This document shows positions 4,594 through 37,983 of a stretch of DNA of 64,000 nucleotides, one piece after another. The stretch's first letter is position 1. The number at the start of each line of letters is the position of its first letter. Made by a program: the position numbers and the translations under genes. The notes below the pieces were generated by a model, which ran no database searches, had not been told where the DNA came from, and saw only the letters and a program-made list of their open reading frames with translations. Origin of the DNA: Gemmataceae bacterium (GTDB taxonomy: Bacteria > Planctomycetota > Planctomycetia > Gemmatales > Gemmataceae); the NCBI GenBank assembly GCA_046350295.1, contig JAXMAR010000001.1, positions 117,354-181,353 on the forward strand, in the 5' to 3' direction.

Positions 4594-5019
4594 CTACGGA
4601 AGAATGACGCAATTCACGTTTGGATATTGCGACAAACCTTTGTCAAAGCTCGTTACCGTCAACTTTGCTGCCAACGCGAACGCGGCCAAGTAGGCGTCAT
4701 TCCAGACCTGCGGCGAATAGGTTTGACTCTGGGTAAACGCTCGCCAATGCGTCTCCACATCAGCGGGCTCACTGGAGAACGCAACACGGGGATCGCTCAG
4801 GAGAAGGTCATACGTCTGCCACGCTTCGGGCAAACGCAGCGCGTGCTTGCCAAAAGCGCTGCGATTGGTCGCCAAGCGCAGGAAGCCTTGTTGCGTCAGG
4901 CGGCAGAAGAAACAGACCTCGTTCACCGGCAGACCGTCAAACCACGTCTTCGCTGCGGGATGATGGACGTGCGAGTCAAAGGTCAAGGCCAGCCAGATGT
5001 TGACGTCAGGGAGATGCAT
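4594..5019 (-). CDS. vapC: type II toxin VapC (PIN domain)
   Basis: 141-aa protein with PIN-domain acidic residues (LPDVNIWLALTFDSHVHH...). It overlaps the upstream antitoxin gene by 14 nt. Confidence 0.75.
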   Translation of the reverse strand: MHLPDVNIWLALTFDSHVHHPAAKTWFDGLPVNEVCFFCRLTQQGFLRLATNRSAFGKHALRLPEAWQTYDLLLSDPRVAFSSEPADVETHWRAFTQSQTYSPQVWNDAYLAAFALAAKLTVTSFDKGLSQYPNVNCVILP

Positions 5020-10721: not shown

Positions 10722-10923
10722 GAGCCCCAACGGGGTGGACAGCCAATAGCCAGGGGCGTGGGTGAGCCCCTGGGCCAGCGTCGATGCGAGTCCGCAAGCC
10801 CTGAAAGGGCGACAGAAACAGGGTATCGGCCGCGGCACTGTCGCCCTTCGGGGCTTGGGACCCGGGCGGACCTCGCCCCAGGGGCTACGCCCCTGGCTAT
10901 TGGCTCCCGCCCCGTTGGGGCTC
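10722..10923. repeat. roughly 200-bp hairpin (MITE/REP-like) element: about 50-bp imperfect inverted repeats flanking a loop that contains GCCCTGAAAGGGCGACAG
   Basis: Left arm gagccccaacggggtggacagccaatagccaggggcgtgggtgagcccctgggc; right arm gccccaggggctacgcccctggctattggctcccgccccgttggggctc. The loop carries an inner inverted repeat gggcgacag/ctgtcgccc and the same motifs as the repeat cluster at 28.2-28.7 kb. Confidence 0.6.
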
Positions 10924-11715: not shown

Positions 11716-12642
11716 TCAGTTCAGCAGCGAGCGCGTGAGCACCTCGCTCGCCCGGGCGAACTCCGGCTGCCAGGTGATCTCCGGCGTCCCCTTCACCAGG
11801 CAGTCGCGCAGGGTCTCGAGCGTGTTGCGAGCCATGTGCGGGCACTTGTTGCAGGCGCACGTGATGCCGGGGACCGGATGATAGCGATGCCGCGGCGCCT
11901 TGCTCTGGAGCTGCCACATCATGTTTGCCTCGGTCGCCACCAGAAAATCCTTCGGCTCGGCGTAACCCAGGACGTACTTGATCATCGCCTCCGTGCCACC
12001 GATGAAATCCGAATGCTCGCGGATGTTCGCCGGGCACTCGGGGTGCGCGATGGTGATCACCCCAGGCATCTTCCGCTTGGTCGCCAGCAGGTCGCCGACG
12101 CTGAAGACCTCGTGGACGATGCAGGAGCCGTTCCACAGGATCATCGGCCGGCCCGTCACCTCCTGAAGGTACTGGCCCAGATGGCGGTCGGGGACGAAGA
12201 GGATCTCGAACTCCTCCGGCACGCGGCGAATGATCTCCTCGGCGTTGCCGGAGGTGACGACCCACTCGGAAAGCGCCTTCACCGCGGCCGTGCTGTTGAT
12301 GTAGGTGACCGTCTGGAACTTCCGCCCGTTGGCGCGGAGCATCTCCTGGAAGCGCGCGAGCTTCTCGGCCGGGCAGCTCTCGGCGAGGCTGCATCCCGCC
12401 TTGAGGTCGGGCAAGAGGACGCGCTTCCGCGGGTTGAGCATCTTGGCCGTCTCGGCCATGAAGTGAACGCCGCAGAAGACGATGGTGTCGGTGTCGACCT
12501 TGGTGGCGGCGCGGGCGAGCTTGAGGCTGTCGCCGGTGAAATCGGCGAGGTCCTGAATCTCCCCCTCCTGGTAATAGTGGGCCAGGATGGTGGCGTTCTT
12601 GGTTTTCTTGAGGGATTGGATTTCCGAGACGAGATCGGTCAT
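11716..12642 (-). CDS. nadA: quinolinate synthase NadA
   Basis: Strong NadA signatures ([16 protein letters not shown], three Cys ligands). Start taken at MTDLVSEIQ. Confidence 0.9.
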
Positions 12643-12833
12643 GGGACGGATCCTTGTTTTTAATGTGGCGCAGGACGAACCCACATCCAGCCTTTTTAAA
12701 GACGGCCTTGCGTCTTCACCGTCATTTTACGACTCTCTCGGCCGAAAAACCACGCGAGGTCTTACCGCAGAGTTAGAGGGAAGCCACCTGAGGAGCGGTT
12801 CGCCTTTTCATGCGTTTCATCCGCGCAGCTCGA

Positions 12834-12990
12834 GAGTGCGTTCGGCTCCAGCCCGCGAAAGAGGCGCATGCCCACGAGCGTATCGTCGCCGCCATCCGCT
12901 CGGAGCTGGACGACGTGCGCCGGCGGCTCACGGCCGGCGAGAAGGTCGACGGCCAGGCCGGCCCCGACGAACGGCCTAACTGCGGCACGC
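12834..12990 (+). pseudogene. diverged fragment of a selA 5' end (selenocysteine synthase N-terminus), non-functional remnant
   Basis: The translation LQPAKEAHAHERIVAAIRSELDDVRRRLTAGEKVDGQAGPDE aligns with SelA residues LEPAKDRHAHERIVAAIRAELDDLRQRLAAGENVDGQAGADE at 14.49-14.62 kb. Nucleotide identity over about 130 nt is roughly 84%, and nothing SelA-like follows. Confidence 0.55.
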
Positions 12991-13163
12991 CAGGGACGAG
13001 CGCGATGGGCGGGGACTTCTTATTCCTGGGACGTGGGCTTTCGGGCTCTCGATCCCGTAGCAGTCCCCCTGCGGCACGGTGTCCCGACCGCGATCGGTTG
13101 GATTGGACGGGGCGCTTTCGGCCGGGTCTTTTGCGAGTGACACAGGGATGACATCGGCCGGGC

Positions 13164-13646
13164 CTACCCAGGACTACGTCGAAAAAAGTCGCGAACCTCC
13201 GCACGGCTCAGCACCCACAGGTGAATCACCCCGATCAAGAAGAGGAAGCAGGCATAACCAAAAGCCCACCAGCGTTCGGCGACACCGATATCGAACAATG
13301 CCATGGACCCCGACTTCGCGTCTATCACCCTATTCAGATCGACACCGACTGCCGAGAGCCAGATCACGGCCCCTGTCATCAGCAGACCAAAGCCGATCGC
13401 TACCCAACCACAGGCCAGGCCCACCGCCCGCGGGACCACGCGGCGGTAGAGCGCAACCCCAACCACAATCAGCGACAGAGCAAGCCCTCTCAGGATGTGC
13501 TCCTCTGCGAAGGGTGGAGCAATCCCCAACTGAGCGAGAGCAAACTGAACGAGAGTGATTACGAGTAGGCCGGCGCCCATAGAAATATCGATGCCGACAA
13601 GTACGGTCAGGGATCGCGGAACCCGAACATTCAACATGGCTGCCAT
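13164..13646 (-). CDS. hypothetical small integral membrane protein (four predicted TM helices)
   Basis: Hydrophobic segments throughout. It lies inside the inserted segment between the selA fragment and selA. Confidence 0.5.
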   Translation of the reverse strand: MAAMLNVRVPRSLTVLVGIDISMGAGLLVITLVQFALAQLGIAPPFAEEHILRGLALSLIVVGVALYRRVVPRAVGLACGWVAIGFGLLMTGAVIWLSAVGVDLNRVIDAKSGSMALFDIGVAERWWAFGYACFLFLIGVIHLWVLSRAEVRDFFRRSPG

Positions 13647-13713
13647 CGAATTCCTTCCTGAATCTCGGTGCGCCCTCCCCGTGGCCGAACGCCCAGTTCA
13701 GCCGCCGCGGCCC

Positions 13714-14235
13714 TCAGATATCGTCTTGCCGCGCTGCGACCGTAGGGGCCGCGGTCGGCTGCAACGCCTCGCTCGGCATGTCTTGGCACAGGGGCAGCAC
13801 TGCCGCATCGAAGCGGTAGGGAGCGAGCAGCGGACGCGTGCGGCCGGACAACTGGATACCCCACTCCGGCTTGCTCTTGAGGCCCTCATCGTCCCGGCCA
13901 ACCAGCAGCCCGGTCGGGGACAACCACGCCGTCGCCGGGATGAGATACAGGTCAGGCGGCTGGTCCTCCTCCAGCAGCACCAGGGCCAGCAGCCGGTCCG
14001 GGCGGAGCGGGAACTTGGTCTTGTGCATGAAGACGTAGTTCGACTCTCGCACCGACTTAACCTGCACCTCGTAGAACCCACCGGCGCCGTGCCGGGCCAC
14101 AAAGTCGATTCCCCGGTCGTCCACCTCGGCCGTGTACACCTCGAACCCGTACACGGCGAACTCCATCTTAACGAAGTACTCGGCGAACCGGCCTACCTGG
14201 TGCGAGTTCAGTCGGCTCCACGAGTACCGCCCCAT
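13714..14235 (-). CDS. PD-(D/E)xK nuclease-superfamily protein (restriction-endonuclease-like fold, DUF4365-like)
   Basis: The D...E-x-K arrangement GIDFVARH...YEVQVKS is an inference from the motif pattern. Confidence 0.45.
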   Translation of the reverse strand: MGRYSWSRLNSHQVGRFAEYFVKMEFAVYGFEVYTAEVDDRGIDFVARHGAGGFYEVQVKSVRESNYVFMHKTKFPLRPDRLLALVLLEEDQPPDLYLIPATAWLSPTGLLVGRDDEGLKSKPEWGIQLSGRTRPLLAPYRFDAAVLPLCQDMPSEALQPTAAPTVAARQDDI

Positions 14236-14419
14236 CAGTGCACCCCGCCTTCAATGCCGAACTTGTGCTTCCCGCGCGCATCAGCGCTGCAGCAAGGTTG
14301 TTGCGCGCGGTGGCAATTCCTTGCGCTGTTCACGGTGCTAATCTCACCATGCGGCAAAGCGGCTGTCAAGAATGGACAACGCGAGTGGAACCGTGCGTTC
14401 ATCGCCGCGCCCGGCTACA

Positions 14420-15844
14420 ATGGCATCGATGAGCGCGAACCTCTTCCGCCACCTGCCTTCCGTCAACCAGATCCTCGATTCGCCGCGCCTCGAGCCCGCG
14501 AAGGATAGGCATGCGCATGAGCGAATCGTCGCCGCCATCCGCGCGGAGCTGGACGACCTTCGGCAACGGCTTGCGGCCGGCGAGAACGTTGACGGCCAGG
14601 CCGGCGCCGATGAGGTGGCGCAGCGGGCCCTCCAGCGCCTGGACCGGCAAATCCAGCCCAGGCTGCGCTCCGTCATCAACGCCACCGGCATCGTCCTGCA
14701 CACCAACCTCGGCCGGGCCCCCATGGCGGAAGAGGCGGCCCGCGCGGCCTACGACGCGGCGCGCGGCTACCTCAACCTGGAGATGGACCTGGCGAGCGGC
14801 AAACGCTCCAGCCGGCAGGATGCCATCCGCGACTGGGTCTGCCAGCTCACCGGCGCCGAGGCCGCGACCGCCGTCAACAACAACGCCGCCGCCACCGTCA
14901 TCGCCCTGCGCGCCCTGTGCCAGGGGAAAGAGGTCGTCATCTCGCGCGGCCAGCTCATCGAGATCGGCGGCAGCTTCCGCATTCCCGAGATCATGGCCGT
15001 CAGCGGGGCCGTCCTGCGCGAGGTCGGCACGACCAATATCACCCGCCTGAGCGACTACGAGAACGCCATCGGCCCCAACACCGCGGCGCTGATGCAGATC
15101 CACACCAGCAACTACCGTGTCTCCGGCTTCACCAAGTCCGTCCCCATCGAGGACATGGTAACGCTGGGCCGCAAGCACAACCTGAAAGTCATCGACGACA
15201 TCGGCTCCGGCGCCATGCTCGACTTCGCCCGCTTCGGTTTCACGGGCGAGCCGATCGCGCGCGACAGCATCCGCGCCGGGGCCGACCTTGTCCTGTTCAG
15301 CGGCGACAAGCTGCTGGGTGGCCCGCAAGCCGGCATCCTGGCGGGAAAGAAGGAATGGATCCAGAAGATCGAGAAGGACCCGCTGATGCGCGCCTTCCGC
15401 CTGGACAAGATGACCCTCGCCGCTCTCGAAGCGACGCTCCGGCTCTACCTCAACGAGGAGCAGGCCCTGAGCGCGATCCCCGGCCTCGCCTTGCTCGGCG
15501 CCCCGGACGCGGAGTTGAAGCGACGCGCCCAGGCCCTGGCCGAGGCGCTGCGCGGCATTCCCGGAATCGCAAGCGCCGAAGTGCTGCGCGACCACGCTTT
15601 CGTCGGCGGCGGCTCCCTGCCCGACCAGCAAATGCCGACCTGGGTGGTCGAGGCGCGGGCGAACGAAATGGAAGACCACGAACTGGCGCGGCGGCTGCGC
15701 GTCGGCGACCCGGCCGTGGTGGCGCGGCTGCGCGACGGCAAGATCGTCTTCGATGTGCGGACCGTGTTTCCGCGCCAGGAAGCGGAGTTGGCGACGGCGG
15801 TGCGGCGTGCGGTGGTGGCGGGTTCAGAACCTGCAGAGGCATGA
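14420..15844 (+). CDS. selA: L-seryl-tRNA(Sec) selenium transferase SelA
   Basis: Full-length SelA: PLP lysine region FSGDKLLGGPQAG and conserved N-terminal LRHLPSVNQIL. Start at 14420 (MASMSANLF). Confidence 0.9.
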   Translation: MASMSANLFRHLPSVNQILDSPRLEPAKDRHAHERIVAAIRAELDDLRQRLAAGENVDGQAGADEVAQRALQRLDRQIQPRLRSVINATGIVLHTNLGRAPMAEEAARAAYDAARGYLNLEMDLASGKRSSRQDAIRDWVCQLTGAEAATAVNNNAAATVIALRALCQGKEVVISRGQLIEIGGSFRIPEIMAVSGAVLREVGTTNITRLSDYENAIGPNTAALMQIHTSNYRVSGFTKSVPIEDMVTLGRKHNLKVIDDIGSGAMLDFARFGFTGEPIARDSIRAGADLVLFSGDKLLGGPQAGILAGKKEWIQKIEKDPLMRAFRLDKMTLAALEATLRLYLNEEQALSAIPGLALLGAPDAELKRRAQALAEALRGIPGIASAEVLRDHAFVGGGSLPDQQMPTWVVEARANEMEDHELARRLRVGDPAVVARLRDGKIVFDVRTVFPRQEAELATAVRRAVVAGSEPAEA

Positions 15845-15869
15845 AAGTTGCGCTCCGGGAGAGCAAGCC

Positions 15870-16160
15870 ATGAGCCATCTCGTCACGGTGGAACTTAACG
15901 ACACCACATATCAGGCGTTACAGCAGCAAGCGCGTGCGGCCGAGAAATCTCCGGCTGATCTGGCAGCTGCGACACTGGAAAAATGCTTTCCCGGAACTGG
16001 CGCCAATGGCCACGCGAGCGAAGCCGATAAACAAGCGGCGCGCGAGCGCTTTGAACGGCATTTCGGCGAAATCGATCTCGGCCAGCCGACGGGTATCGAC
16101 AATGAGACCATCGACGCGGACCTGGCCCGCAGTTATGCCGACACACATGAGGAGCCGTGA
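15870..16160 (+). CDS. ribbon-helix-helix/VapB-like antitoxin
   Basis: 96-aa MSHLVTVELNDTTYQALQQQARAAEKSPADL... Its stop overlaps the ATG of the downstream PIN gene (TGATG). Confidence 0.6.
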   Translation: MSHLVTVELNDTTYQALQQQARAAEKSPADLAAATLEKCFPGTGANGHASEADKQAARERFERHFGEIDLGQPTGIDNETIDADLARSYADTHEEP

Positions 16161-16551
16161 TGTTGTTGGACACATCCGGCTTGCTCTGCCTCCACCACAA
16201 GGCGGAGCCGTTCCATGACAAGGCTCGCGAGGCTTATCGGACGGCTCAGGTTCGGTGACGCATGGGTACGTGCTCGCCGAGTTCGTCGCGCTGGCTCAAG
16301 CACGGCGGTTGCCGCGTTCGCCAGCGCTCGCCTTCATGGTCGATCTGGTGAACAATTCGGATATCGAGACGCTGTGGATCGACGAGTCGCTCCATCGAGA
16401 GGCGATCGCCCTTTTGCAAGATCGTCCCGATAAGACGTATTCGTTGTGTGATGCGGTGAGTTTTCTGATAATGCGCAAACGCAACCTGACCGACGCCTTG
16501 AGCACCGACCGTCACTTCGAGCAGGAAGGTTTCCGACGACTGCTGACCTAA
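16160..16551 (+). pseudogene. vapC: VapC PIN-domain toxin, split by a frameshift near 16250-16258
   Basis: N-terminus MLLDTSGLLCLHHKAEPFHDKAREAYRTAQVR in frame 2 stops at 16256-16258. The PIN C-terminal half (THGYVLAEFVALAQARRL...CDAVSFLIMRKRNLTDALSTDRHFEQEGF) continues in frame 1 from 16255. Confidence 0.65.
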
Positions 16552-16583
16552 TTGATTGGCACAGCTGCGGCCGCGTCACGTCT

Positions 16584-17021
16584 TACACGTGCCCGTAGAT
16601 GTACTCGTGCAGCAGGTGGATCGTCCGCTCCTGGGTGGTCGCCTGGAATGCGTTCAGATCGCCGATGGAAATGAGGCCGGCCAGCTCACCGTCATCGTCC
16701 ATCACCGGCAGATGGCGAACGCGGCGGTTCTTCATCACGCCGCGCGCCTCCTCCAGGCGCCGTGTCGGGCTGGCAGCAGATCAGGTCGGTCGTCATCACT
16801 TCATCCACCGCCGTCTCGGCCGGATCGCGCCGCGTGGCGACGACGCGCGTGAGGATGTCGCGCTCCGTCAAGATCCCCACCAGCCGGCCTTCCACCAGGA
16901 CGACCAGGGAGCCGACCTTGAACTCGTTCATGTACTGGGCGGCCTTGAGGACGGTCGATGTGGGCGAGATCGAAAGAACGTTGGACCCTTTGTGGACCAG
17001 GATGTCGCGCGCGGTGGCCAT
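16584..17021 (-). pseudogene. CBS-pair domain protein with a -1 frameshift near 16755-16765
   Basis: MATARDILVHKG...VMTTDLICCQPDT is in one frame; the continuation EEARGVMKNRRVRHLPVMDDDGELAGLISIGDLNAFQATTQERTIHLLHEYIYGHV reads in the adjacent frame down to TAA (complement of 16584-16586). Confidence 0.7.
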
Positions 17022-17245
17022 GAGAAACCTCTCGTGAAGCGAAATGGCGAGGCGATGGCGGGGCGTCGTCCGCGAGTCGGACACGCCCGGACATGAGCGA
17101 CCTGCATTTTGGCGTCGGGCGCCGTCCGTTTCAAGAAAAAAAGATGTGTTTTCTGAAAACCGGCGGTCTACCACCTGGATCAGTATTAGGTTTTTTAAAG
17201 TCATGCGCTATTGATATTAGGAGACGACATGCTACCATTCTCTCC

Positions 17246-18217
17246 ATGCACTTGGGCTCCTTAAAAGTGTTCTGTGACGTTGCGCGCAACCGCAGCTTCT
17301 CGCAAGCCGCGCACGTCAACCACGTCACGCAATCGGCCGTGAGCCAGATCATCTCACAGCTCGAGCGGCGCATGGACGTGCAGCTCATCGACCGCTCCAC
17401 CCGGCCTTTGCAGCTGACCAACCTGGGCCGGACCTTCTACGAGGGCTGCAAGAGTCTGCTCCAGCGCTACGCCGAGCTGGAGACGAGCATCCGTTCCGCC
17501 CGGGCCGAGATCGCCGGCAACGTGCAGGTGGCCGCCATCTACAGCGTCGGGCTGGGGGACATGGGGCAATACGTCGAACGCCTCACGGCAGAGGAGCCGG
17601 GCGTTCAGGTACATATCGAGTATCTGCACCCCGATCGCGTTTACGAGAAGGTGCTGGACGGCACGGCCGACCTGGGCCTCGTTTCCTTTCCGCGTTCGTC
17701 GCCCAAGCTGGCGGCGCTGCCGTGGCGCGAGGAAGAGTTCGTCGTCGTCTGCCCGCCGCGCCATCCGTTCGCGGGTCGCCTGGCGGCGCCGCTCGAGCAG
17801 CTGGCCGGGCAGAAGTTCGTTCATTTCGAGCGCGACCTCGTCATCCGCAAGAAGATCGACCGCTTCCTGAAGGAGCGCGGCGTCGGCGTCGAGGTCAGCT
17901 GCGAGTTCGACAACATCGAGAACATCAAGCAGGCGGTGGCGGTCGGCGCCGGCATCGCCCTCTTGCCGGAGCCGACGGTTCGCCGCGAGGTGAAGAACCG
18001 GAGTCTGCTCGCCCTGCCCCTCTATGGCGAGCGGTTCGTTCGCCCGCTGGGCATCATCCACCGCCGCCGCCAGAAGCTGAGCGCGGCCGTGCGGCGTTTC
18101 ATCGAGATCCTGTGCGACGACGGCGCCGCACGCAACGGCGACACGCACTTCGCCAAGGGCGCCCCCTTCAAAGAGTCGCGCGCCAAATCAACCCATCGCG
18201 CTCCCGCTCGGGCGTGA
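17246..18217 (+). CDS. LysR-family transcriptional regulator (possible GltC-like regulator of gltBD)
   Basis: N-terminal HTH LKVFCDVARNRSFSQAAHVNHVTQSAVSQIISQLE and a LysR substrate-binding domain. AGGAGA ribosome-binding site ahead of the ATG at 17246. gltB lies 240 nt downstream. Confidence 0.85.
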   Translation: MHLGSLKVFCDVARNRSFSQAAHVNHVTQSAVSQIISQLERRMDVQLIDRSTRPLQLTNLGRTFYEGCKSLLQRYAELETSIRSARAEIAGNVQVAAIYSVGLGDMGQYVERLTAEEPGVQVHIEYLHPDRVYEKVLDGTADLGLVSFPRSSPKLAALPWREEEFVVVCPPRHPFAGRLAAPLEQLAGQKFVHFERDLVIRKKIDRFLKERGVGVEVSCEFDNIENIKQAVAVGAGIALLPEPTVRREVKNRSLLALPLYGERFVRPLGIIHRRRQKLSAAVRRFIEILCDDGAARNGDTHFAKGAPFKESRAKSTHRAPARA

Positions 18218-23161: not shown

Positions 23162-23884
23162 ATGTCATCTATTCTCGCGCCGCTAAACCTGAACACACCG
23201 TTGCCGGACCACAACCAGCTTCCGTCCAACGATGGAGTCCCCGTGCGCAACTCGCTCGAACCCTGGCAGAGTTCCCTCCTGAGCGAAACGTTGGAACCGG
23301 TTCTCCGCACGCGCTATCCCGAGGGTGACTATTTCATCGGCCAGGACTGCGGCATCTACTGGGAGAAAACCGACCCGCCGGCGCAGGGCTGCAAGGCGCC
23401 CGACTGGTACCTGATTCCCAATGTGCCACGCCTTCTCGACGGACAAATGCGACGCTCTTACGTGCTCTGGCAAGAGCTGGAGCTGCCTTTGGTCCTTCTC
23501 GAATATGCCTCGGACCGCGGCGCCGAGGAGCGCGACAACACTCCCATGCGCGGCAAGTTCTGGGTCTACGATCGCAAGATTCACCCCGCCTTCTACGGCA
23601 TTTATCTCCCGGATGAGGCCCGTATCGAAATGTACCACGCGGTCGAGCATCATCTCGAGTTGATGCCGTCCAACCAGGCCGGAAGGTTTCCAATCCGCGA
23701 TCTCGGTGTCGAACTGGGCATATGGCATGGCAGCTATGCCGGCTACGAAATCCCGTGGATGCGCTGGTGGGACGAGTCCGGTCGGCTGCTGCCGACCCGG
23801 GAAGAGTCTGAGATCCGCGAAAAGCTCGAGAACGAACGCCTGGCGGCAAAGCTGCGAGCCTTGGGCGTGGATCCGAATGTCTAG
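23162..23884 (+). CDS. Uma2-family (DUF820) putative restriction-endonuclease-like protein
   Basis: N-terminal [31 protein letters not shown] and [12 protein letters not shown]...[17 protein letters not shown] match the cyanobacterial/planctomycete Uma2 pattern. Confidence 0.6.
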
Positions 23885-33307: not shown

Positions 33308-33937
33308 ATGACGAAGGCAAAGACGCCAAGACAGGGAACCTCTTCACCGACCTCAGCTGAGGCACCGGAAAAGGTGCTCTCCAGTATTGAGATACTTGCC
33401 GTGGCGGTCTTTCTTTTGGACGGGCATTCCCGATACGTGGACACTGAGGACATTGCAGTGAAAGCGAACGAAATTGCGCCCGGGAAGTTTAGCTGGGTGA
33501 AATACCAGGACCAGATTAACATCCACACCGTGAAGACTCATCTTTGGGACGCAAAGAGCGAGCGCAAGGGTAACCTGCTGCTCGGCTCGGAAAAGGAAGG
33601 ATGGATGCTTACGTCAGCCGGGCTAGACCTTGCACGTAGCCGATTGAATGGACTGAAAGGGATAAAACCCGAGAAGAAAAAACTGAGCGAACCAGAGAAG
33701 CAATGGATGAGGACCGAGCGTCTGAGAATGGTCGAAACGGCCGCGTACAAAAAGTGTGCATCGGGCCAGACCGGTGCAGTCACGCTCGACGAAGCTGAAG
33801 CTTTCTTTCGTTTAAACAGCTATGTGGTGGGGAAGGCAAGGGAACGGAAGATAGTCCGCGTCTTGAATCTATTCGGCGACGACTCGGAACTCGGTGACGC
33901 GGTAAAGGGTCTTGCGGGCCTTGTGCGAGGAAAGTAG
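33308..33937 (+). CDS. hypothetical protein, first gene of the low-GC three-gene cassette
   Basis: 209-aa ORF at about 53% GC in a 67% GC genome. It ends 3 nt before the GHKL ATPase gene. No motif was recognised (possible winged-helix-like region). Confidence 0.55.
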   Translation: MTKAKTPRQGTSSPTSAEAPEKVLSSIEILAVAVFLLDGHSRYVDTEDIAVKANEIAPGKFSWVKYQDQINIHTVKTHLWDAKSERKGNLLLGSEKEGWMLTSAGLDLARSRLNGLKGIKPEKKKLSEPEKQWMRTERLRMVETAAYKKCASGQTGAVTLDEAEAFFRLNSYVVGKARERKIVRVLNLFGDDSELGDAVKGLAGLVRGK

Positions 33938-33939
33938 AC

Positions 33940-35595
33940 ATGGCCGAAACATCCAAAGAGCTGGTTGTTCGGAGCCACGTGGCACGCGATCTTTTGCAAA
34001 CGGCCGGTCTTTTCAAAAGCGATCGATTGGTGGTTTGGGAATACGTAGCGAACGGGTTGCAGTACGTCGATCCTGGTACGAATCCACAAGTTCGGGTCAT
34101 GATCGATGCCAAGAAGAAACGCATCGCGATTTCTGATAACGGCCGAGGCATGGATTGGCGAGGCCTTCAGAATTTCTTTATTATGCACGGTGAGAATCTT
34201 GATCGAAAGGAGGGCAAGGCCGGCCGAGGTAGGTTCGGGACGGGTAAATCTGCCGCATTCGGAATAGCGGATACGCTGCGATTGTCAACTGTATGCAACG
34301 GGAGCCGGTCGATTGTCGAGCTCCGCCGAAGGGACATTCAGGCCATGACCTCGGGCACGGAGATTCCGGTGAAGGTAGTTGAGCGAGAAACGCGCACGTC
34401 TGACCCGAATGGCACGTTGGTTGAAATCGAGAACGTCTCCCTCCGCTCCATCGATCAGGCCAGCATCATTCGGTATATCGAGAGGCACATGGCGCGGTGG
34501 CCAAAAAACATAACCGTATCCGTGAACAACCATCTCTGCGACGTCTCGGAGCCGCCCCTGGATCGTGAGATAAGACACCGAGCGCAAGGACGAACGCGAG
34601 AGATACTTGGAGACGTCGAATTGGTCGTAAAGACATCAAAGCGTCCTCTCGAAGAAGATGAACGCGGCATTTCAATTTTTTCTCGCGGGATTTGGCACGC
34701 TGTTACGCTTGCCGGTTGCGAGGGAAGGGACATGTCGCAGTACATTTTCGGCGAGATCGATGTCCCCCGACTGGAAGAGGATGTCTCGGCTGTCCCGCCC
34801 TTTGATGTCACGCGGTCCATGGAACTGAACCCAAACAACGATCTCGTCCGGGAAGTTTTCGCTTTTATCTATGAGAAGGTGGAGGACATTCGTCGGAGCC
34901 TGATGGAAGTCGAGCGCCGTCGCAAGGCGACCGAAGAAGCGCGGAAGCTTGCCACGCAAGCGGCAGAAATCGCAAATGTGATCAATGAGGACTTCGATAC
35001 TTTCCGCGGCAAGGTCGCCAAAGTAAGAGCGAAAGCGGTCGGCGGCACAGATCTTTTTGGAATCCGGACAAAGGGGGAGGAGCCGGAGAGCGCACTGGTT
35101 TCTGGCGGACCGCTCCCGGCGTCGGAGGTGAGCCCAATTGGAAGTGAGGGAAAGAGCGGTGACGGGGAGACGGCTGGAGGCGATCCTCCAGATCTGAAGC
35201 CGTTCTTGCAGCCTCAAGACGATGGCCCAGAGAAGGGTCAGCCGGTCAAGGCTGCACCGAAGAAGGTCCGTCCACGAGGGGGGTTCCAGGTGAGATTCGA
35301 GCATATTGGCACAGAGTCGAACCGAGCGAAGTACGTTTCGGATGAGCGCACCATTTACCTGAATCTTGATCATCCGCAACTCCTTGCGGCACGAGGAGCG
35401 GGGCCTGTGGAAGATCCAACATTTCGTCGGCTTGCCTATGAGGTGGCTTTTACAGAGTACTCAATCGCTCTGGCGACCGAACTCGCTCAGCTGGAGGGCT
35501 ACTATATTGACCCAACGGACCCGATTTTTGATATCGGGGAGACCCTCAATCGGCTTGCACGGAAGGGCGCCCGGCTTTATTCGGCCACGAATTAG
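33940..35595 (+). CDS. GHKL-superfamily ATPase (Hsp90/MORC-like HATPase_c domain) with a C-terminal extension
   Basis: N-box/G1/G2-like motifs VVWEYVANGLQYVD, ISDNGRGMDWRGLQNFF and GRGRFGTGKSAAFGIADTL are typical of Bergerat-fold ATPases. Low-GC codon usage. Confidence 0.75.
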   Translation: MAETSKELVVRSHVARDLLQTAGLFKSDRLVVWEYVANGLQYVDPGTNPQVRVMIDAKKKRIAISDNGRGMDWRGLQNFFIMHGENLDRKEGKAGRGRFGTGKSAAFGIADTLRLSTVCNGSRSIVELRRRDIQAMTSGTEIPVKVVERETRTSDPNGTLVEIENVSLRSIDQASIIRYIERHMARWPKNITVSVNNHLCDVSEPPLDREIRHRAQGRTREILGDVELVVKTSKRPLEEDERGISIFSRGIWHAVTLAGCEGRDMSQYIFGEIDVPRLEEDVSAVPPFDVTRSMELNPNNDLVREVFAFIYEKVEDIRRSLMEVERRRKATEEARKLATQAAEIANVINEDFDTFRGKVAKVRAKAVGGTDLFGIRTKGEEPESALVSGGPLPASEVSPIGSEGKSGDGETAGGDPPDLKPFLQPQDDGPEKGQPVKAAPKKVRPRGGFQVRFEHIGTESNRAKYVSDERTIYLNLDHPQLLAARGAGPVEDPTFRRLAYEVAFTEYSIALATELAQLEGYYIDPTDPIFDIGETLNRLARKGARLYSATN

Positions 35596-35607
35596 AACGC
35601 GAGGCGA

Positions 35608-37983
35608 ATGACGCCCATGCCGATTTCTCGCTACCCGAGGCAAGGCCACCCGCTTGCACCGACAATACTGAAGCCCGTGTTGGGCGTCCGCATTCCAAAG
35701 AAGCTCTTGGGAAGCGCAGTAACAAACGTCGTTTTCTTTTCCGACCTCACAAAGAGCGCGTGGGAGACGTTTCCTCCGGAAGTCTGCCGACAACTGGGAA
35801 CGGCACTCGTCGAGACCATCCGGGCAGTTAACCTTACAAAGACCATTCTTCGCACGCCTCTTCCGGCTGTCCCACCCAGCTTATCGATCGAAGACTTGGA
35901 ATTGGAGCAACGCACGTACAACTGTCTTTGCAAGATGCGACGCGAGGGCCTCCTTGCCGGTCCAGAGGAACTGAGCACAAAGACGATTCGGGATATCCTC
36001 AACGTAGAGCATTTCGGTGCAAAAAGCCTAGTGGATCTGCTCACCTCGCTCGAAGCCGCAGGTACGGATGCAGCTCCGAACCTCAATGAGGAAGGCAAAT
36101 CAAAGGAAGCAGCCATATTAAGCGAAGACACGCTCGCGGCAGCGTTCGTTGGCCGTCTCCGCAATCTGCGTTTACCCACCCTTCCGGCCGGCATCGAACT
36201 CGGCGATCTCCATTTGGCAAAGGAAACTCATGCTTGTTTGGTTGAAGAGGGGTTTGCGGCTCGGATTGGAGAGTTGGCGAACCTCACACTCGCAGAGGCG
36301 TTGACGATTCGAGGGTTTGGGATTGAGAGATTGCTGGATTACCTGGACGCTGTGGACCACGTCAAACGGGACGCAAATGGCAAACCCGAGCAGGCTGTCG
36401 GACCTCGACTGAACGACTATGAGCGCCTAATGCGCTATCTGTTCAGACCGGGGCGGTCGACCGCGCTACGTGTCAAAGCCGAGCCCCAGGAACGTCACCG
36501 ATATCTTGAGGACGAGATGCGGGCCCTGATAAAAGGGAGCTTCAAGAGTAACAAAGCCGCGAACTTTGGGCGGAACACCGACATGATCGCAACGTACTAC
36601 GGTTGTGACGGTCGGGGAGGCGCAACCTTGGCCGAGGTTGCTAACCAATACGGGTTGACGAGGGAGCGCGTCCGGCAGATTTGCATGAAGTCTGCGCAAC
36701 GAATGAAAAAGGGCGGAATCCAACCGGAGCGTCTGAGAGCGGTGTCCCGCAGGATCACTGAACTCTTGCCATGTGAAGCGGACTCGCTGGAAAGGGTTCT
36801 GCAAAGCGAAGGATTCACACGAGGCGCCTTCAGGGTGAAGGGAGTGCTACTGTTTTCACAGATGTTGGGAGAACCGGCGCTGTTTCAACTGGAGGATATT
36901 GATGGACGGCGAATGGTCGTTGCTCCCGAGACAGCTCGAATGACAAGGCGAACGATCTTCCAGAGCCGCAAGGCGGTATCTCAATTTGGCGTGGCGACCG
37001 TATTGGATCTGGCCGCCGTGCTATCTGAGCAGTTGTCCACAACGATGACGCCGGAAGTTGTAACTCGGGTGCTCAATTCCCAACCTGGATTCGAGTGGCT
37101 CGATCGTGAAGCGGGATGGTTCTGGTTCCGACATCTTCCGAGAAATCGCGTCGTAAGCCGCATTCGCAAGATTCTATCAGTTTCCGAGGGTATCGATGTA
37201 GGTGAACTCCGAATCGGAATTGCCAGGCACCATGCGATGGATGGGTACGCACCGCCAAAAAAGGTCCTTTTGGAGCTTTGTAAACGATTGCCCTATTGCG
37301 TGGTCGACGGACATGTTGTGCGTGCGGAGCCACCGATTGATTGGAAGACTACACTTCGAGGCGCCGAGTTGTCATTGATAACGATCTTAAAGGAGAACGG
37401 CCCAGCCATGCAGAGACCTAAGCTTGAAAAGCGCTGTCTGGACCTAGGCATGAAGCGTTCTACGTTCTACGCCTACTTGAGCTATTCGCCGGTAATTGAG
37501 AGATATGCTTCCGGCGTCTACGGTATTCGCGGAGCAGCAATCGAACCAGGGGTCGTCGAATCCCTTATTCCTTATACCCAGCGAACTAGAGGTGTTCGCC
37601 TTGACCACGGTTGGACGCGCGATAGGCGCATTTGGATCGGATACTGCGTCTCCGAAGGAATGCTTGGCAATGGCGCCTTTAGCGTTCCCGCGGGCCTCAA
37701 GCAGTTTCTTCAAGGGACGTATGCGATGAAGAGTGCCGATGGGGCCGCCATAGGAACGGTTGTGGTCAAGGACAACGCAGGCTGGGGTCTTGGAACATTG
37801 TTTCGGCGCAGAGGCGGTGAGCCGGGTGACACGTTACTTCTTATTTTCGACGCAAAGGCGCAGCTGGTTACGGCCGCTGTGGGAGACGAAGGTCTACTGG
37901 AGCAATTCGACGATGAGGGGGAGGAAGAACAGGCAACGGAGGCGGGGAAGGAGGGGGAAGGAGGCGCTGCGCCCCCGTCGTAA
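35608..37983 (+). CDS. large multidomain protein with two RNAP alpha-CTD-like helix-hairpin-helix repeats and a sigma-70 region-4-like HTH
   Basis: LELEQRTYNCLCKMRREGLLAGPEELSTKTIRDILNVEHFGAKSLVDLLTSLE and LHLAKETHACLVEEGFAARIGELANLTLAEALTIRGFGIERLLDYL resemble RpoA alpha-CTD. ATLAEVANQYGLTRERVRQICMKSAQRMKK resembles sigma-70 region 4.2. The C-terminal roughly 400 aa are unassigned and the tail is acidic. Confidence 0.65.
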   Translation: MTPMPISRYPRQGHPLAPTILKPVLGVRIPKKLLGSAVTNVVFFSDLTKSAWETFPPEVCRQLGTALVETIRAVNLTKTILRTPLPAVPPSLSIEDLELEQRTYNCLCKMRREGLLAGPEELSTKTIRDILNVEHFGAKSLVDLLTSLEAAGTDAAPNLNEEGKSKEAAILSEDTLAAAFVGRLRNLRLPTLPAGIELGDLHLAKETHACLVEEGFAARIGELANLTLAEALTIRGFGIERLLDYLDAVDHVKRDANGKPEQAVGPRLNDYERLMRYLFRPGRSTALRVKAEPQERHRYLEDEMRALIKGSFKSNKAANFGRNTDMIATYYGCDGRGGATLAEVANQYGLTRERVRQICMKSAQRMKKGGIQPERLRAVSRRITELLPCEADSLERVLQSEGFTRGAFRVKGVLLFSQMLGEPALFQLEDIDGRRMVVAPETARMTRRTIFQSRKAVSQFGVATVLDLAAVLSEQLSTTMTPEVVTRVLNSQPGFEWLDREAGWFWFRHLPRNRVVSRIRKILSVSEGIDVGELRIGIARHHAMDGYAPPKKVLLELCKRLPYCVVDGHVVRAEPPIDWKTTLRGAELSLITILKENGPAMQRPKLEKRCLDLGMKRSTFYAYLSYSPVIERYASGVYGIRGAAIEPGVVESLIPYTQRTRGVRLDHGWTRDRRIWIGYCVSEGMLGNGAFSVPAGLKQFLQGTYAMKSADGAAIGTVVVKDNAGWGLGTLFRRRGGEPGDTLLLIFDAKAQLVTAAVGDEGLLEQFDDEGEEEQATEAGKEGEGGAAPPS

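Follow-up and report, generated by a model that had tools for sequence, protein, structure and literature searches.

The stretch of DNA analysed here, a 64-kb window from a Gemmataceae metagenome-assembled genome (MAG), contains an intact selA gene preceded by a short selA-like segment (copy A), two small genes on the opposite strand and nadA, the native gene at the left boundary (Table 1). Together with a CBM9-like gene, nadA forms a pair conserved in 29 of 80 loci, and nothing upstream of nadA is conserved; similarity to other nadA loci ends at ∼12715-12731. The leader of nadA is conserved and structured and resembles the preQ1-I class. It may control NAD biosynthesis in Gemmataceae as a riboswitch-like element not described before, and is the more promising by-product of the analysis.

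Table 1. Features of the nadA-selA interval (positions within the 64-kb window)
Feature	Position	Strand	Remarks
nadA, quinolinate synthase	11716..12684	-	Native left-boundary gene; Pfam NadA 5.8e-104; ATG 12642 is the probable true start
Left flank of copy A	12732..12842	.	Separates copy A from the conserved nadA leader/promoter; selA N-terminal coding sequence absent
Copy A, selA pseudogene fragment	12843..12970	+	Codons 20-62 only; repeat with 14486-14613; both ends truncated
193-nt spacer, copy A to P160	12971..13163	.	Linked to both in three assemblies
P160, predicted membrane protein	13164..13646	-	Near-orphan; NCBI MFO0964080.1; GC3 0.66
P160-P173 intergenic region	13647..13713	.	The match of contig L088 to the window ends here, at ∼13692
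P173, small PD-(D/E)xK nuclease-fold protein	13714..14235	-	DUF4365/Mrr-like; AF2 model and Foldseek
Intact selA, L-seryl-tRNA(Sec) selenium transferase	14429..15844	+	471 aa; Pfam SelA PF03841 4.9e-147, Se-cys_synth_N PF12390 5.7e-10
Copy B, segment of intact selA	14486..14613	+	Codons 20-62; second half of Se-cys_synth_N domain and linker

Both the catalytic domain and the N-terminal Se-cys_synth_N domain are present in the intact gene. The Pfam match to the latter spans residues 25-64 of the 490-aa open reading frame, equivalent to residues 6-45 of the true SelA. The protein (P0121) is 100% identical to NCBI MFO0964082.1, from a Gemmataceae MAG, and the best non-self SelA among 5.8 billion proteins was 81% identical, with neighbouring genes that differ from those of the window. 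An N-terminus of the form NPFRxLPSVNxVL was found in every Gemmataceae SelA.

Comparison of selA with the window by blastn revealed that copies A and B form a direct repeat (E = 8e-34), 128 nt long, ungapped, in frame and 84% identical (107/128), with starts 1643 nt apart. It was the sole repeat of at least 45 nt across the 64-kb window, and a search of the window for other selA relics yielded none. Both copies lie in the selA reading frame and their peptides are identical at 34 of 43 residues; SelA residues 20-62 matched copy A at 79% amino acid identity by tblastn (E = 1e-15). The edges of the repeat are sharp on both sides, with 12-14 matches per 15 positions inside and 4-7 per 15 outside, and its flanks showed no significant homology (shuffle p = 0.15 on the left and 0.046 on the right). 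An earlier note, made from the letters of the sequence, had reported a repeat at this place that was conserved at the protein level; the repeat was confirmed there with the same nucleotide identity and the same peptides, and, given the sharp edges and the flanks without significant homology, the similarity is not of the low-complexity kind. The description of the repeat as a duplicate of the selA 5′ end held in that copy B lies within selA, but, because the true start of selA is at 14429, copy B corresponds to codons 20-62 and not to the extreme 5′ end. Similarly, the DNA that the earlier note took to be inserted between the copies is real, but its length of ∼1.4 kb was corrected to 1515 nt (12971-14485).

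Copy A is cut short on either side: it lacks a promoter, a start codon and codons 1-19, which hold the conserved N-terminal FRxLPSVN motif. Three-frame translation of its left flank revealed stops and no LPSVN motif in any frame, and no homology was detected between this flank and either the selA upstream region or codons 1-19. Over its 43 codons, copy A contains no stop and no indel, and its composition is still coding-like (GC1/2/3 of 0.86/0.47/0.91). In a soil contig that is ∼98% identical (L088, sample ERZ1759591), a 1-nt deletion in the CCC run of copy A (12851-12853) shifts the frame, and the segment is therefore a pseudogene fragment. Copy A thus has significant homology to a functional gene, is truncated and possesses neither start nor stop codon, as expected of a relic; it is non-coding today and has no present function. 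The truncation at both ends and the L088 frameshift support the proposal that the upstream copy is a displaced leftover of selA.

The DNA between the copies starts with a spacer that is ∼98-99.8% conserved in L088 and in a further contig, L090, from sample ERZ773282. The spacer showed no selA homology and no Rfam match, a promoter and terminator scan of it gave nothing notable, and its predicted RNA fold was not unusual (z = 0.92). Two genes follow, as had been proposed. The codon usage of P160 is foreign-looking (GC3 of 0.66 against ∼0.9 for the host); a search of 5.8 billion proteins gave only two homologues, at 96 and 46% identity, and searches of Pfam, NCBIfam and PADLOC gave no match. P173 has host-like codon usage (GC3 of 0.87). 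Its AlphaFold (AF2) model (pLDDT of 90.5) matched Hjc resolvases, the SPARDA nuclease domain, I-Ssp6803I and EcoRV in Foldseek searches (E = 4e-5 to 1e-3). Sub-threshold matches to DUF4365/Mrr_cat were obtained for 44 of 49 family members, all Pfam matches being below the gathering score, and D39/D40, Q58 and K60 were invariant. The modelled fold, with its alpha-beta-beta-beta-alpha-beta core, and the conserved acidic...(E/Q)xK motif confirm the assignment of P173 to the PD-(D/E)xK superfamily, as a predicted nuclease.

The P173 family is large and widely scattered (>1240 homologues), matches phrog_5018 at 1e-9 and is present on eight viral contigs. Relatives of P173 sit alone in unrelated contexts, without P160, selA or flanking repeats, and no duplicated gene fragments were found around P173 homologues elsewhere. 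Composition across the region shows no sharp GC shift, atypical GC3 being confined to P160 and to small open reading frames downstream of selA. P160 and P173 are not one unit: the gap was filled piecemeal, since the codon usage of P160 is foreign and that of P173 host-like.

To the extent sampled, the association of selA with nadA is peculiar to this lineage. nadA was near selA in none of 80 GTDB selA loci, and selA, P160 or P173 was near nadA in none of 80 metagenomic nadA loci; synteny has a lineage-specific breakpoint at this site. An empty site cannot be defined, because no conserved synteny was present in the 80 selA loci, in the closest SelA relative (81%) or in the 80 nadA loci. An exact search of JGI metagenomes for the copy A/spacer junction gave 0 matches, and exact look-ups of the P173, NadA and P0121 proteins gave no contig on record. 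The near-identical strains are themselves structurally polymorphic to the right of copy A. L088 shares copy A, the spacer and P160 with the window and diverges at ∼13692, 22 nt before P173 (MAFFT, blastn); its 70-nt tail had no counterpart in the window or in any locus retrieved, and had no significant match to the P173 family as a possible allele, the C-termini of that family being too variable for comparison. L090, at 2.8x coverage, diverges at 13400, inside P160, into 717 nt of unrelated sequence that matches nothing, and this contig may be chimeric.

Differences between copies A and B fell mostly at third codon positions (6:2:14), with a dN/dS of 0.23, below 1 (Fisher p = 0.002); over the same codons, copy B and its true orthologue in L086, the nearest available, gave a similar value of 0.21. 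Nucleotide identity was 84% between A and B, 75% between A and L086 and 76% between B and L086. Polarised changes numbered 11 on the A lineage, 10 on the B lineage and 20 on the outgroup (Tajima p = 1.0). The best match to copy A was the SelA of the window itself (34/43), the next best being 27/41, and four-taxon parsimony weakly favoured the grouping of A with B (307 versus 212 versus 159 summed sites). No intact A-type or donor selA was found among 5.8 billion proteins. The third-position bias of the differences and the equal distance of both copies to the nearest orthologue suggest that copy A most likely derives from a separately evolving, once-functional selA allele, although all the A/B statistics are weak because the region comprises 43 codons only. 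Separate coding histories for the two copies are, with this in mind, probably to be accepted from the dN/dS and the equal lineage changes.

The explanation that we favour, and judge probable if only just, is that copy A is a 128-nt relic of a second selA allele, left by recombinational replacement or rearrangement at the synteny breakpoint. The A-type allele would have evolved as a working gene in a related but distinct lineage, closer than any sampled genome, and two selA alleles would once have been present in or near the locus, either because one was imported horizontally from a congener or because an allelic replacement left an imprecise (illegitimate) junction. The allele that became redundant would then have been whittled down by deletions and insertions on both sides, and accessory genes, P160 and separately P173, would have come to occupy the gap; the breakpoint adjoining nadA would still be structurally polymorphic among near-identical strains. 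The two sharp edges of copy A need at least two separate events in every model alike. Whereas copy A is a selA fragment, truncated, non-coding and diverged from the resident gene in the manner of coding sequence, we infer the succession of events, the identity of the resident allele and the action of recombination rather than a site-specific integrase, because no pre-event or empty-site genome has been sampled.

The same fragment could instead date from an old event in which part of the selA 5′ region was duplicated within the genome; copy A would since have drifted as a neutral pseudogene, with all of the constraint on B. This is unlikely, though it accounts for several of the observations. 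On its own branch, copy A accumulated 4 synonymous and 7 non-synonymous changes (4:2:5 by codon position), a pattern equally compatible with neutral decay and with constraint; B is the main source of the third-position bias (2:0:8), and A and B are mutually closest among all sampled sequences. Had A been neutral since the split, however, a ratio of ∼2.5:1 would be expected, against the 11 versus 10 observed (one-sided p ∼0.05, calculated from the counts), and the per-site rate in A, 0.085, is below the synonymous rate of B, 0.21 (p ∼0.06). The 43 codons have moreover escaped indels and stops, yet L088, 2% diverged, already carries an indel; GC3 has remained at 0.91, whereas non-coding DNA nearby is at ∼0.6; and a neutral scrap of 128 nt would have to outlast ∼0.2-0.5 substitutions per synonymous site despite deletion bias.

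The earlier note read the locus as the classic footprint of an integrative element. In a fuller form of this account, a site-specific element entered the 5′ part of selA and brought a surrogate promoter and 5′ coding end, its integrase was since lost, and a further deletion took the host promoter and codons 1-19 to the left of copy A. Direct repeats do bracket two accessory genes, of which P160 is foreign in codon usage and P173 belongs to a family found on viral contigs. The coding-type, mostly synonymous divergence of A and B resembles that of icd and icdC at prophage e14 (PMC13626634), and the 5′ ends of genes are known targets of integration, as with SXT/R391 at prfC (PMC5812530); e14 and phage 21 offer the mirror image, at the 3′ end of icd. 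The geometry at selA is nevertheless wrong. A replacement-5′-end model requires the host promoter and the first codons to remain attached to the displaced copy; here the left flank has stops and no start or LPSVN motif, so that no canonical selA would result from excision of the DNA between the repeats (attL x attR). Alignment of the copies for an att core, as had been suggested, gave a longest identical run of 18 nt, which is at chance level (a run of at least 18 nt arose in a 0.58 fraction of simulations of 128 nt at the same identity).

Nor does the 5′ end of the intact gene appear phylogenetically anomalous, as an element-supplied replacement would lead one to expect: in a comparison of low power, dS to L086 was 0.78 for codons 1-62 and 0.53 for the rest combined, and 70-codon windows ranged from 0.26 to 0.78. 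The statement that no integrase remains was correct, no integrase, recombinase or transposase domain being present in any sizeable open reading frame of the 64-kb window. The cargo is not a unit, with L088 breaking between P160 and P173; a second selA N-terminal copy occurred in none of 81 other Gemmataceae selA loci; no viral contig carried a selA 5′ fragment; and a literature search on selA as an integration site found nothing relevant. An integrative element is accordingly not supported, as a footprint or as the source of a new selA 5′ end, and is rated as more doubtful than an old duplication. A bolder form of the idea, improbable on present evidence, would make copy A the eroded att footprint of a new small Gemmataceae mobile element that targets the selA 5′ region and carries its own promoter and N-terminal end, in the manner of SXT at prfC but in Planctomycetota; alternatively, the free-standing P173 might have acted as a homing-type endonuclease, with break repair co-converting the selA 5′ region and leaving a filler fragment.

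That copy A is functional now, whether within a small open reading frame, as a regulatory RNA or by donating sequence to selA through gene conversion, is very improbable. An ATG-initiated frame of 113 aa (12810-13151) does span it, and the block is 98-99.8% conserved in two other assemblies, but the tail of this frame has non-coding composition (GC1/2/3 of 0.63/0.72/0.63), the L088 deletion breaks the frame from the ATG, and the high identity merely reflects very close strains. Searches gave no family match, and neither an Rfam match nor an unusual fold was found. Least credible of all is an assembly or binning artefact joining reads of two related populations: the source is a MAG, and L090 does switch to unrelated sequence inside P160, but the independent Logan assembly L089, of sample SRR26348421, reproduces 12519-18111 at 99.95%, so the arrangement is not an artefact of MAG assembly, the nadA/copy A/spacer/P160 junctions recur in two further contigs from other samples (L088 and L090), and the fragment edges do not lie at shared identical k-mers.

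If the relic reading is right, selA was once present as two diverged alleles in this Gemmataceae lineage, which would imply that a gene of the selenocysteine pathway was exchanged horizontally or replaced between related planctomycetes; the finding itself is of modest import. It also marks the nadA-selA interval as a hot spot of structural change. As a point of method, a gene-end direct repeat together with accessory genes is insufficient to call an integrative element; such calls need checks of geometry (whether the displaced copy bears the native gene end) and of recurrence.

Among known systems, the two ∼130-nt direct repeats 1.6 kb apart, one of them in a coding region, recall the template and variable repeats of a diversity-generating retroelement (DGR), but this idea was rejected: the mismatches show no adenine specificity (C>G 5, C>T 4, G>C 3, G>A 3, A>G 2, others), the selA repeat is at the 5′ and not the 3′ coding end, and no reverse transcriptase domain occurs in the 64-kb window. 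At prophage e14 of E. coli K-12, icd and icdC differ mainly by conservative or synonymous changes (PMC13626634). There, as with phage 21 and as at selA, an intact gene and a short displaced fragment bracket inserted DNA, and both have evolved as coding sequence. By contrast, e14 has an integrase and excises, and icdC is a natural 3′ end contiguous with the host flank, whereas the selA locus has no integrase and its fragment is internal (codons 20-62), with the natural gene end missing on both sides.

SXT/R391 integrative conjugative elements occupy the 5′ extremity of prfC (PMC5812530). They differ from the selA locus in scale and equipment. SXT is ∼100 kb with Int/Xis and a short core, whereas at selA a pair of unrelated small genes occupies 1.5 kb, a recombinase is lacking, no core exceeds what chance gives and none of 81 related selA loci shows a recurrence. 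In the work of Hochhut and Waldor from 1999, SXT reportedly provides prfC with a promoter and a 5′ coding part of its own, and the earlier note proposed a strategy of this kind for selA. Gene remnants are also a product of xenologous or allelic replacement and of homology-facilitated illegitimate recombination. The selA locus resembles these in having a short, truncated, once-coding piece beside an intact diverged copy, at a synteny breakpoint and with accessory genes of mixed composition; its assignment to this class is by exclusion and by substitution patterns over 43 codons, the donor lineage being unsampled. Copy A is, in these terms, best regarded as an unremarkable scar that replacement or rearrangement of the gene left behind, and not demonstrably the footprint of a mobile element.

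Repeat analysis of the window identified a single direct repeat of at least 45 nt in 64 kb, an ungapped 128-nt pair consisting of an upstream segment (copy A) and a segment within intact selA (copy B), spaced 1643 nt start to start. The location and 84% identity proposed in the earlier note were thereby confirmed. When the selA region was compared with the whole window by blastn, the pair was returned at E = 8e-34 and all other matches were at noise level. Both copies are in frame, and translation reproduced the previously quoted peptides, which are identical at 34 of 43 residues. Identity per 15-nt step was 12-14/15 within the repeat and 4-7/15 just beyond either edge, and local alignment of the flanks was no better than that of shuffles (p = 0.15 and 0.046). 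The product of selA is 100% identical to NCBI MFO0964082.1 (MAG, Gemmataceae planctomycete). The duplication had been assigned to the 5' end of selA; copy B does lie inside the intact gene, but the true start is at 14429 (471 aa), and copy B therefore corresponds to codons 20-62.

Features of the selA locus and other elements of the window
Feature	Position	Strand	Evidence or remark
PIN-domain gene, clear	4594-5019	-	Pfam 9e-10
Acido-Lenti-1 sRNA, sub-threshold Rfam match	10878-10922	+	32.6 bits vs gathering score 37, E = 1.8e-4; intergenic, between DUF3500 gene and CBM9-like gene
nadA with conserved leader	11716-12684	-	Pfam 5.8e-104
nadA leader	~12643-12729	-	upstream of true nadA start, ATG 12642
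~110 nt, origin unknown	~12732-12842
Copy A	12843-12970	+	repeat search
193-nt spacer	12971-13163
P160, membrane protein	13164-13646	-	no family match
P173	13714-14235	-	PD-(D/E)xK nuclease-fold protein (AlphaFold model, structure matches)
selA	14429-15844	+	SelA 4.9e-147, Se-cys_synth_N 5.7e-10
Copy B	14486-14613	+	repeat search
P96 and P98, two small low-GC3 ORFs	15870-16551	+	directly 3' of selA
Uma2-family putative restriction endonuclease ORF	23162-23884	+	Pfam 1.2e-7; lies between the glutamate synthase genes (large subunit; small-subunit-like), with an overlap onto the listed start of the small-subunit-like ORF
Three-ORF block	33308-37983	+	209 aa, no Pfam match; 551 aa, HATPase_c_3 (GHKL/MORC-like); 791 aa, RNA_pol_A_CTD and Sigma70_r4 helix-turn-helix

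Copy A is a truncated piece of selA, as had been supposed: homology is confined to codons 20-62, and the N-terminus common to every Gemmataceae SelA (...NPFRxLPSVNxVL...) has no counterpart in any frame to its left, where the in-frame sequence contains stops. Neither nadA, P160 nor P173 was found near selA in any of 80 selA loci, the 81%-identical SelA relative having other neighbours, and selA, P160 and P173 were likewise absent upstream of nadA in all 80 nadA loci, 29 of which keep the CBM9-like gene downstream. DNA conservation upstream of nadA ends at ~12715-12731. Taken with the absence of shared synteny, this places copy A at a lineage-specific synteny breakpoint. A forest-soil contig (L088, ENA ERZ1759591), ~98% identical over 12812-13692, has copy A, the spacer and P160 in common with the window and breaks abruptly at ~13692, 22 nt before the stop of P173. 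A second near-identical contig, from another sample (L090, ENA ERZ773282, 2.8x), leaves the window at 13400, inside P160, and continues for 717 nt that match nothing. These breaks to the right of copy A suggest ongoing structural change, and represent either strain-level polymorphism or, for the 2.8x contig, possibly a chimera.

The 21 differences between the copies fall 6:2:14 by codon position, with 12 synonymous differences over 33.2 sites and 10 non-synonymous over 95.8, giving a Nei-Gojobori dN/dS of 0.23 (Fisher p = 0.002); over the same codons, comparison of copy B with its closest true orthologue (L086, 81% identical) gave 0.21. Nucleotide identity was 84% between A and B, and 75 and 76%, respectively, between each and L086, indicating that A and B are sisters equidistant from the outgroup. 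Their dS of ~0.5 is about two-thirds of what separates them from the L086 lineage. Polarization with L086 assigned 11 changes to A, 10 to B and 20 to the outgroup (Tajima p = 1.0). The third-position bias belongs mostly to B (2:0:8). With only 43 codons, power is low. Copy A retains a GC3 of 0.91 and, in the window, has neither indel nor stop. The copy B segment has a GC3 of 0.79 against 0.89 for whole selA, and GC3 seems to be falling in the 5' region of the working gene.

These data, from 43 codons and hence of low power, may be read as indicating that copy A belonged to a functioning selA during much of the time in which A and B diverged, and that its truncation is comparatively young. Two functional selA alleles are required for such a history; in the simplest case, one would be native and the other acquired from a related lineage. 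A search of 5.8 billion proteins found no intact SelA of the A type, and the best match other than the window's own SelA was 81% identical. The explanation we favour, at roughly even chance, is that a second, once-functional allele would have been present, that recombinational replacement or rearrangement would have left copy A as its relic, functionless today, and that deletions and piecemeal insertion of accessory genes would have followed. An old internal duplication, with copy A decaying neutrally, is an unlikely alternative account: neutrality would fit the changes specific to A (4 synonymous, 7 non-synonymous; 4:2:5 by codon position), but a neutral copy A is calculated to have changed ~2.5 times as much as B since the split (one-sided p ~0.05), against the 11 and 10 observed.

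Somewhat less probable still is the degraded site-specific integrative element of the earlier note, which would have supplied selA with a replacement 5' end. The reported absence of an integrase was borne out, since the sizeable ORFs of the 64 kb yielded no domain of an integrase, recombinase or transposase, and this argues against such an element. The suggested alignment of A and B for an identical att core yielded a longest run of only 18 nt (12882-12899), at chance expectation (P = 0.58). When an element integrates in the manner of SXT/prfC or e14/icd, the host's native gene end stays with the displaced copy (PMC5812530, PMC13626634), whereas copy A lacks the native promoter and codons 1-19; recombination of attL with attR would therefore give MRFIRAARECV-RLQPAK... 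and not canonical SelA, and the geometry requires a further ad hoc deletion. The 5' end of intact selA showed no anomaly, at low power, in dS against L086 (0.78 for codons 1-62; 0.26-0.78 in other 70-codon windows). As "cargo", P160 and P173 are not a unit in GC3 (0.66 and 0.87), homologues (only two anywhere and >1240), contexts or the L088 break. Nor does the arrangement recur: in 81 other selA loci, of which 64 included 3 kb or more of upstream sequence, the N-terminal region was never present a second time, and selA N-terminal fragments were absent from IMG/VR contigs. The model has thus lost its specific support.

A present function for copy A is very improbable. The 113-aa ORF spanning it has no match in Pfam or other family libraries and a tail of non-coding composition (GC1/2/3 = 0.63/0.72/0.63), and L088 has lost one nucleotide from the CCC run at 12851-12853; together with the missing N-terminus, these features imply that copy A is without present coding constraint. 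Assembly artefact is the most remote explanation, since an independent Logan assembly (L089) matches 12519-18111 at 99.95%, which shows that the arrangement is not an artefact of the MAG.

Both intervening genes were as previously described, a membrane protein and a PD-(D/E)xK-like protein. The AlphaFold model of P173 (pLDDT 90.5) matched Hjc resolvases, the SPARDA nuclease domain, the homing endonuclease I-Ssp6803I and EcoRV, and 44 of 49 family members gave sub-threshold DUF4365/Mrr_cat matches. The family (~150-170 aa) is conserved across phyla, includes a Chloroflexi protein named DUF4365 at 57% identity, occurs on 8 IMG/VR viral contigs and is scattered singly in unrelated contexts (L081-L085, L091-L098); the closest relatives of P173 (81-85% nucleotide identity) are lone, with no P160, selA, integrases or flanking repeats nearby. 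The small ORFs 3' of selA (GC3 0.62-0.71) also look accessory. Judged by eye, P98 looks like the C-terminal portion of a PIN/VapC toxin and P96 like an antitoxin, with no supporting library match. The three-ORF block (GC3 ~0.60 vs ~0.9 elsewhere in the window) has the look of a module gained by horizontal transfer, with defence as a possible role.

At least 25 different loci in Gemmataceae share the conserved nadA leader, which comprises, in order, a TAnAAT box, hairpin 1 (AGACG-CAAGGC-CGUCU), UGUGG-(12 nt)-CCACA, an A-rich tail and AAGGA 7-10 nt ahead of the ATG; this Shine-Dalgarno sequence can pair with a UCCU loop. Compensatory changes occur in hairpin 1; at one of its pairs the counts are AU 16, CG 3, GC 2 and UG 1. 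The covariation score was 0.096, against 0.052 ± 0.008 for shuffles (0 of 500 reaching it) and ≤0.063 for all slid controls, and RNAalifold recovered both hairpins. The architecture is that of the preQ1-I riboswitch, but the Rfam PreQ1-I score was far below threshold (12.5 bits vs gathering score 39); neither NAD+-I nor NAD+-II matched, and a literature search found no description. The leader looks like an undescribed preQ1-I-like, Shine-Dalgarno-sequestering element and is a candidate riboswitch-like regulator of nadA.

Among known systems, icd/icdC at e14 is closest to the A/B pair in appearance and SXT at prfC in proposed strategy. On three counts, integrase, geometry and recurrence, the pair does not qualify for that class, and the claim of a classic integrative-element footprint is not supported. 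The kind of genomic scar is already known, and copy A is another instance of it.
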